From a virus, in IMG/VR virus record IMGVR_UViG_3300009149_000122: a DNA stretch of 36,434 nucleotides; one strand, 5' to 3'. The position numbers and the translations under genes were made by a program. Positions 17,283 through 18,554 of the stretch are shown one piece after another. The notes below the pieces were generated by a model, which did not search any database, was not told the origin of the DNA, and saw only the letters and a program-made list of their open reading frames with translations. Position 1 is the first letter of the stretch. Every line of letters starts with the position of its first letter.

Positions 17283-18554
17283 ATGCGACCTAAGCTAGTC
17301 AAATACCAGGGATACCTATATCAATACGTGCCCAGTACTGTCCGCTATGCCGGAACCACGTATAACCTTGTGTTGTCGTACTGGACCCCTCCACCCAATT
17401 CGAGGGCAGCAAAACAGCGGGCTAAAGAGTCCCTGTTATTCCTGCAAAAACTAATACCACTCCTCACCGATGACAAAGTCGATGATGGTATGCGGGATGT
17501 GTTCCGATCCTCTTTTTCCCAAATAGCTTACCCCTTCCAGCGTATGCTAGACCATGGCTACCTGGAACAATTTGACTCAGCGCATGAGGCTGCCGACACC
17601 TATAGTCAGCTGTCCCGGTGGCTAAACACAGACGGTATGCGTGAGCTGATCACCAAGTCCAAAAAATGGATGGATGAGTTCGTCAAAGAGGTACAGCAAC
17701 GCCCGTTGTACGACTACGACACAAGCACAGAATTTACAGTGGACCCCCGGGAACCTTTGTCGGAAGCCGCTATCCGTTTCGCAAAAGATGCGTATGATGA
17801 CGACCAGGAACACAGGGAGTTTACTAAAGACGTTCTCCCTGTTTTTGATCTGTTTCGTGAGCTACCAGAACACCTGGCTGCGTTGGACGACTATCTACAC
17901 GCCATCGAATATAAACGGGATCTAGTTAGCAAACAGTTTGCCAAAAGAGGTCCCGGTGATCCAAGACCTGATGTAGCAGAGCGTGAGATTGTTTGGCACG
18001 CGACTACCGCTCTCCCGGCTATTTTGAAGGGCGGGTTCAAGACGCGCGAAGAGCTCGGAGAAGCCGCGGGACTTGGGGGTTCCGTTCAGGGTATCAGCTT
18101 CACTGGATCTTTGCACATTGCACAGCAGATAGCGCAAGCGATGCTAGACGCCGTTACGGTCTTACAGGGGCCACGTACGCTGGACGCAATCTTTTCTTAT
18201 GCCGACACTATAGGTGTACCTTCCGATGAGTTACTAGAGCTCTTTCGTGCTGCGTGGGGAGGAAAGCCTAAAGTCGAAGCCGACGGTAAGGTGGCATTGC
18301 AGGACGCTTTCAACCTTGTACGCTTTGCCCTGAATATAGCTGAGCAGAAGGGTAAGCGGTACGACCCCCTGTTCTTTGATACCTCAAATCTTGCTAGTAA
18401 GTTTCAGGCGATGAACCCTAAAGACATCGGCGTAGTGGAGGCAGTTGTGGATACGACCGACCCTCAGGTCGAGTATTTACATTCTATGGAGGAGTGGAGG
18501 GTTCCGTTGTCGGGGATCTTGAGTTACGGTCCCGTAGGGTCTCAGAAGATCTAG
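17283..18554 (+). CDS. protein with PARP-like ADP-ribosyltransferase-fold motif; N-terminal shared motif KLVKYQGYLYQYV
   Basis: IVWHATTALPAILKGGF...GSVQGISFTGS parallels PARP1 LLWHGSRTTNFAGILSQGL...GKGIYFADMVS; start moved to ATG 17283 (track 17154 overlaps previous ORF). Confidence 0.4.
   Translation: MRPKLVKYQGYLYQYVPSTVRYAGTTYNLVLSYWTPPPNSRAAKQRAKESLLFLQKLIPLLTDDKVDDGMRDVFRSSFSQIAYPFQRMLDHGYLEQFDSAHEAADTYSQLSRWLNTDGMRELITKSKKWMDEFVKEVQQRPLYDYDTSTEFTVDPREPLSEAAIRFAKDAYDDDQEHREFTKDVLPVFDLFRELPEHLAALDDYLHAIEYKRDLVSKQFAKRGPGDPRPDVAEREIVWHATTALPAILKGGFKTREELGEAAGLGGSVQGISFTGSLHIAQQIAQAMLDAVTVLQGPRTLDAIFSYADTIGVPSDELLELFRAAWGGKPKVEADGKVALQDAFNLVRFALNIAEQKGKRYDPLFFDTSNLASKFQAMNPKDIGVVEAVVDTTDPQVEYLHSMEEWRVPLSGILSYGPVGSQKI

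Follow-up and report, generated by a model that had tools for sequence, protein, structure and literature searches.

The gene and its product

The IMG/VR virus record IMGVR_UViG_3300009149_000122 comprises 36,434 nucleotides, called the window here, and is phage DNA, since genes for a large terminase (∼30% identical to jumbo phage terminases) and a portal protein are present. Our analysis deals with a gene on its plus strand (17283..18554) which codes for a protein of 423 amino acids and which an earlier sequence-only reading had taken for a PARP-like ADP-ribosyltransferase (ART) and a possible VPARP analogue. As delimited from the list of open reading frames (ORFs), the codon positions and the start of a homologue, the gene extends from an ATG at 17283 to a TAG at 18552-18554. 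A longer frame from a GTG at 17154 is possible, the start at 17283 being favoured because the 71%-identical homologue P0002 likewise begins with MRP. A convergent gene on the opposite strand (18561..21128) codes for an MVP-like protein of 855 amino acids. Its stop codon, read as CTA on the plus strand at 18561-18563, is located 6 nt past the TAG, exactly as had been stated before.

The predicted product has three parts. An N-terminal leader (aa 5-30; 17295..17372), recognized by motif scans and by the strands of the AlphaFold2 model, contains two beta-hairpins, LVKYQGYLYQ and VRYAGTTYNLV. The strands of this leader (5-8, 11-14, 17-22, and 25-30) are modelled with low confidence, at a predicted local distance difference test (pLDDT) value of about 40. 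The leader is followed by an alpha-helical bundle domain (aa 40-220; 17400..17942) and by a domain with a predicted ART fold (aa 228-423; 17964..18551), which harbors a helical insert of ∼100 amino acids between strands 2 and 3 (18111..18410).

The full-length model, with N-terminal hairpins, helical bundle and C-terminal alpha/beta domain, reaches a pLDDT of 78. A model of the domain only, built on a 42-sequence alignment, reaches a pLDDT of 93.4 and a predicted template modelling score (pTM) of 0.89. Its six strands form the split beta-sheet of an ART core in the order b1-helix-b2-helix-b3-b4-b5-b6, with His239 in b1, Ser272-Phe-Thr274 in b2, ∼100 amino acids of helices before b3 and b4, and b5 starting from Glu404. 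The structure search with this model returned almost exclusively ART-fold proteins, with list values of 7.5 for diphtheria toxin, 7.2 for PARP15, 6.9 for AcrIF11, 6.6 for PARP4 and 6.4 for Tpt1. The list also contains exotoxin A, PARP1/2/3/10/13/16, tankyrases, Rhs ART toxins, CARDS, LT and pertussis toxin. Using the full-length model as query yielded the same ART matches, ranked beneath helical-bundle noise. Among the predicted viral structures of BFVD, the best match was an 848-aa ‘phage head morphogenesis domain’ protein (E 1.1e-5). Taken together, the predicted structures support an ART fold for the C-terminal half of the protein. The sequence-only reading had named the lack of any ART-fold match in profile or structure searches as the ground for giving it up, and the structure search did deliver ART folds.

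Putative catalytic-residue pattern

Conservation was counted in 132 domain sequences, each representing a separate cluster at 50% identity. His239, Gly265, and Glu404 are invariant (132/132 each), while Ala280 (131/132), Thr274 (130/132), Arg406 (129/132), Ser272 and Glu235 (128/132 each) and Pro408 (115/132) are near-invariant or frequent. Judged by this conservation the motif signal is well beyond chance. The proposed NAD-binding His239 (17997..17999) lies in strand 1 within the motif E-x-x-W-H-A-T-T and was assigned by its invariance and by alignment to tankyrase-2 and PARP1. Strand 2 carries Ser272-Phe273-Thr274 (18096..18104) within G-I-S-F-T, where conservation and the tankyrase-2 alignment place the Ser at the tyrosine position of H-Y-E enzymes. 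Glu404-Trp-Arg406-Val-Pro408 (18492..18506) marks the start of strand 5, and both conservation and strand position point to Glu404 as the putative catalytic residue.

Both strings quoted in the sequence-only reading were found in the protein, IVWHATTALPAILKGGF at aa 236-252 and GSVQGISFTG at aa 266-275; the gap between them counts 13 residues and had been misjudged as 25. The PARP-like donor-site spacing was confirmed. His239 and Ser272 are 33 residues apart; the corresponding distance is likewise 33 residues from H21 to Y54 of diphtheria toxin and 34 from H862 to Y896 of PARP1. The sequences used for these two proteins agreed at 100% identity with PDB chains 1dtp_A and 6m3i_B. The reading of the strand-2 residue as a Tyr replaced by Ser agrees with a sub-threshold HMMER alignment of the family profile to tankyrase-2 (E 0.8-1.5), where ‘vEtlyHattaareilkeGFkt…LGGsvkkgiSF’ stands against ‘…IGGMFGAGIYF’. 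This alignment sets GiSF on GIYF and the family His on the catalytic His (LFHGS). LWHGS of PARP1 is likewise aligned to the family His, with the match of the family hidden Markov model to PARP1 covering the His region only (2.4 bits); the diphtheria toxin sequence gave no alignment to this model.

In the H-Y-[EDQ] clade, His ends strand 1, a Tyr is present on strand 2 (GxYF or FYST) and an acidic residue or Gln opens strand 5. The family has the invariant His at the end of strand 1 and the invariant Glu as first residue of strand 5; at the Tyr position it has Ser, or in the few remaining sequences Ala or Cys. From the topology and an E-aromatic-x-V/I pattern, Glu404 would be the equivalent of E148 in diphtheria toxin and E988 in PARP1, in which the catalytic Glu is followed by a pattern of this type (E148-Y-I-N and E988-Y-I-V). 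The triad of the protein thus reads, in its sequence, as H-S-E. Features of the R-S-E clade, which carries Arg, S-T-S and E/Q-x-E on strands 1, 2, and 5, respectively, were not found in the family: strand 1 has the invariant His, S-F-T on strand 2 is a partial likeness, and the position two before Glu404 is not a conserved E/Q. The S-x-T of strand 2 nevertheless recalls the STS motif of R-S-E toxins, and the pattern mixes both major toxin clades. Since the H-S-E triad departs from the H-Y-[EDQ] definition, we place the family within the ART superfamily, closest there to the H-Y-[EDQ] clade, but do not call it a PARP. Of the PARP-like ART claim, what holds is the fold together with two catalytic residues out of three; the strand-2 Tyr is missing, and no curated PARP model matches.

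The protein shares with diphtheria toxin, exotoxin A, and PARPs the His in hh-[WY]-H-[GA]-[TS] on strand 1, a subsequent helix that ends with G-[FL], a strand-2 G-h-x-F/T motif spaced 33-34 residues from the His, and a Glu plus aromatic residue opening strand 5. Unlike these enzymes, it has Ser and Ile in place of the strand-2 Tyr and the second pocket Tyr, a 100-aa helical insert between strands 2 and 3, and an unrelated helical bundle as N-terminal partner; nor does it match the Pfam models of PARP or diphtheria toxin. The ART-PolyVal or N4-like ART modules (PF18760) resemble the family in being phage effectors, some of them inside polyvalent proteins. Their configuration is H-Y-D (PMC5512222), in contrast to the H-S-E pattern and the large helical insert of our family, which PF18760 does not match. 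T4 Alt, a head-packaged ART, is a member of the R-S-E clade and has Arg where strand 1 of the family has His, and the anti-CRISPR ART AcrIF11 is a minimal ART of 137 amino acids, unlike the 423-aa protein described here. No sequence similarity of the family to T4 Alt or AcrIF11 was found.

Family, proposed function and alternatives

A word-indexed search identified 8 relatives of the protein, and the profile built from them matched 967 of 1.84 billion cluster representatives at E<=1e-3 and 92 at E<=1e-30, each standing for a cluster at 50% identity. This family of 967 clusters, with an ART fold and an unusual H-S-E pattern, is not covered by Pfam, NCBIfam or PHROGs; searches of the latter two with the protein gave no match. 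PF00644 (PARP), PF18760 and other curated ART models did not reach their gathering thresholds. When three diverse members were compared by tblastn to 50,697 GenBank phage genomes, no match was obtained. A degenerate MEEWRVP pattern, used to look for hosts or prophages, gave 73 loci in 185,579 genomes and was discarded, all being chance matches.

The family occurs as stand-alone genes, of which the window gene is one, in uncultured, mostly large phages, and as a domain of larger proteins. In the 4678-aa protein P0081 it is combined with PBECR5, a polyvalent-protein marker, and in P0082, P0108, and P0117 with GNAT domains. P0021 has an ART-PolyVal module at its N-terminus (E 3.6e-6) with the family domain downstream, in P0010 and L017 the family domain occurs together with a ParE-like domain and a PARP-like module, and P0016 and P0023 also have the family domain downstream of ART-PolyVal or PARP-like modules. 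ART-PolyVal shares polypeptides with the family in P0021, P0010/L017, and P0023. The family thereby shows the recurrence in giant multidomain phage proteins with markers that characterizes polyvalent effectors (Iyer et al. 2017). An hhalign comparison of the family to ART-PolyVal-like modules aligned the strand-1/helix-1 region (E 4.9e-4), a weak profile-profile similarity. Among the genes that lie near the family in other contigs are clusters of DNA methyltransferases, a tail gene, YAcAr, a gene with a faint match to DarA_C and one for a trypsin-like protease. Phage ARTs are often early, injected, head-packaged or parts of polyvalent effectors (PMC9503650, PMC5512222), and the contexts of the family match these published patterns.

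ADP-ribosylation is a central weapon for both sides of the phage-host conflict. We regard it as fairly probable that the protein is an NAD+-dependent phage effector which modifies a host macromolecule, where the use of NAD+, the chemistry, the target, and the timing or delivery are what we infer. Such an effector would consist of the short N-terminal beta-hairpin leader, the helical bundle and a C-terminal ART domain whose fold most resembles that of the diphtheria-toxin/PARP (H-Y-[EDQ]) clade. Strand 1 with His239, the Gly-rich loop G263-L-G-G266 and strand 2 with Ser272/Thr274 may together form the cleft that binds NAD+. Glu404, which opens strand 5, could then promote the release of nicotinamide and pass the ADP-ribose on to a protein or nucleic acid of the host, while target recognition or regulation may be provided by the helical insert of 100 amino acids and by the N-terminal bundle. 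The protein presumably acts independently of the adjacent MVP-like gene. Due to the stand-alone genes, the polyvalent modules and the ART-PolyVal neighbours, the family protein may be made early or packaged in the virion, and it would behave like other phage anti-host or anti-defence effectors. If active, the family would add a new enzyme family, possibly with a new target, to phage effector biology and provide an annotation for many dark-matter genes and polyvalent-protein modules.

Several observations weigh against this effector reading. Pfam gave no family at E<=1 for the protein, and for 42 family members at E<=10 it gave no ART family and nothing recurrent. Searches of PDB sequences by phmmer and hmmsearch yielded nothing significant, tankyrase-2 being the best match (E 0.8) and, at E about 0.8-1.5, the sole natural-enzyme match over the motif. 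Since no sequence-profile search was significant, the ART assignment is based on the fold and the conserved residues. The equivalence of Glu404 to the catalytic Glu follows from topology and not from a printed superposition. Both nicotinamide-pocket tyrosines of H-Y-E enzymes are replaced, by Ser272 and by Ile283 at +11, the position of Tyr907 in PARP1, and therefore NAD+ binding is not guaranteed. The computed part of the reading comprises the fold, the residue conservation, the domain architectures and the lack of a conserved MVP linkage, while timing, packaging, and target of the effector go beyond it.

The altered nicotinamide pocket, with Tyr changed to Ser and the second Tyr lost, also fits the main rival, an ART fold with another chemistry. 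The protein could be a NADase or, as in RES, an NAD+ phosphorylase; it could be an RNA 2'-phosphotransferase of the Tpt1/KptA kind or, like T4 ModB, carry out RNAylation; or it could bind NAD or ADP-ribose without any catalysis. None of these would make it a classical ADP-ribosyltransferase of macromolecules. Such activities exist within the ART superfamily (PMC9503650). However, the top structural neighbours are transferases of the diphtheria-toxin/PARP clade, and the Glu-aromatic pair, with its strictly conserved Glu, is a typical transferase feature. Tpt1 has no catalytic Glu and uses an R-H-R-R tetrad, and a conserved tetrad of this kind was not seen in the 132 family sequences. We hold a different chemistry to be possible, if clearly less probable than ADP-ribose transfer by an effector. 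That the resemblance to ARTs is a chance or model artefact, and the domain an alpha/beta fold related neither to ARTs nor to NAD, would agree with a predicted structure and with the missing significance at the sequence level. Yet the invariant residues are located on just those strands that bear the ART triad, the sub-threshold sequence matches are also to PARPs and in the correct register, and the family co-occurs with ART-PolyVal modules, which makes an artefact very improbable.

A further rival reading concerns the neighbouring gene. The MVP-like protein is a genuine homologue, as had been proposed (Pfam MVP_shoulder 7.8e-25, Vault_3 6e-7), and the two stop codons are only 6 nt apart, so that the protein might be a partner or cargo of an MVP-like shell, a phage counterpart of PARP4, perhaps loaded by its leader. 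The human MVP shoulder is reported in a 2026 preprint to bind NAD+/ADP-ribose (bioRxiv 10.64898/2026.05.01.722283), and by analogy the phage MVP might bind ADP-ribose-derived molecules. In addition, a gene for a NADAR-domain protein (15322..16047, plus strand; Pfam 4e-32, phrog_1017) is located 1.2 kb upstream of the ART-like gene and 2.5 kb from MVP in the window, and NADAR is found ∼4 kb from MVP in L013 and L014. Against this stands our survey of 15 independent loci by hmmsearch and phmmer on six-frame ORFs, with <=10 kb of flank per side. MVP was absent from all 10 other distinct family contexts (0/10; 128 kb), and neither a family member nor the leader motif was present in the five IMG/VR phage MVP loci (0/5; 103 kb), whose MVP homologues are 43% identical. 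In L001, which carries the 71%-identical relative, another leader-tagged gene follows 24 nt after the family gene in the place of MVP. Between the gene in the window and the next leader-tagged ORF at 22675 lie MVP (minus strand), an HNH endonuclease gene (plus strand) and a 127-aa ORF, a block which looks like an insertion.

Because they are convergent, the two genes form separate transcription units, and MVP has promoter-like sites of its own in the divergent region ∼21240-21380, in a number not above that of shuffled sequences. Pfam found no MINT, BRCT, VIT or vWA domain in the protein, unlike PARP4/VPARP, whose triad is H-Y-E and not H-S-E; the chain stops 6 residues past the last ART strand and leaves no C-terminal extension able to serve as a MINT domain. 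PARP4 is also no closer in structure than other ARTs. The VPARP analogy of the sequence-only reading is therefore not supported: MVP linkage was seen in this window only, an MVP-interaction domain is missing and the genes converge. As seen from flanks of <=10 kb, the adjacency of the two genes appears incidental, and we judge MVP, as listed by Pfam matches, to lie outside the system. A partnership with the MVP-like shell is very unlikely, and the broader idea of a vault-like phage compartment, with leader-bearing proteins including the H-S-E ART-fold protein as its cargo, and thus of a viral counterpart to the eukaryotic vault and its PARP, is more doubtful still. A vault link would have been the most striking implication and is not supported.

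NADAR as a dedicated partner of the ART-like family was considered and rejected, as it is missing from all 10 other family contexts. The phage MVP itself has shoulder and vault repeats, and its relatives at 43% identity are encoded on five large IMG/VR phage contigs (L010-L014), which measure 68-194 kb.

Leader motif and neighbouring genes

The N-terminal motif of the protein, as the sequence-only reading had noticed, is common to further ORFs of the window. Motif scans found h-[KR]-[YWV]-[QKRN]-G-x-x-Y-[RQ] within <=12 residues of the start of four ORFs (309..632, 4059..4616, 17283.., and 22675..23124), that is, in three besides the ART-like gene. Elsewhere it is present in three consecutive genes in L001 (including 4715-5185 and 5163-6317), in three genes in L016 (7217-, 9602-, 16066-) and in one in L017 (13141-). 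Its carriers are unrelated; among them are, besides the ART-like protein, a DSP-like phosphatase that contains HCWGGISRS and proteins 870-1129 amino acids long. The background amounts to 2 occurrences in 538 kb of unrelated genome loci. The motif is also internal in long proteins, near the start of a newly recognizable module, and was found in loci with no MVP detected within the <=10 kb flanks. As few family members carry it, the leader belongs to the phage lineage and not to the ART-like family. Its sharing by unrelated enzymes would make it a possible delivery or processing signal, and we hypothesize that it acts in packaging, targeting or processing. Only tentatively would we take it for a new signal or module boundary by which diverse effectors are loaded into the virion for injection.

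We rejected the idea that the leader stems from repeated DNA or from a common upstream element, because near the four starts no conservation exists at the DNA level. The consensus can be extended by an alanine to h-[KR]-[YW]-x-G-x-x-Y-[RQ]-x-A, and a leader-like motif, FRGAVYR, is found at the C-terminus of the family member P0004, whose start is overlapped by the trypsin-like protease gene (L004, 1784-2527). The leader-tagged ORF 4059..4616 (plus strand) codes for a 185-aa protein with an ART-PolyVal-like start, DDYLYHVT…SIARSGLIPG…GGGYVG, for which Pfam gave no match. In L017/L018, the gene that directly follows the family gene (11014-13131) codes for a homologue of this protein (E 1.2e-6).

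Just upstream of the ART-like gene, a 70-aa ORF (17050..17262, plus strand) shows the pattern CxxCxGxG…CxxCxGxG of DnaJ-type zinc fingers. HNH endonuclease genes lie on either side of the pair of ART-like and MVP genes (16334..16897 and 21370..21945, both plus strand), which suggests homing-endonuclease-associated mosaicism in the region. Another pair of genes, 10151..12289 for a 712-aa protein with a weak VWA_CoxE match and 12600..13328 for an ARPP-1 domain protein, is kept in the related phage L001 (8221-11402) with 57-63% identity. There it is located on the other side of the ART-like gene, and therefore the gene order has been rearranged. Near a distant family member, L097 (1789-3896) carries two adenylosuccinate-synthetase-like genes, which might be of the PurZ type for 2-aminoadenine genomes.
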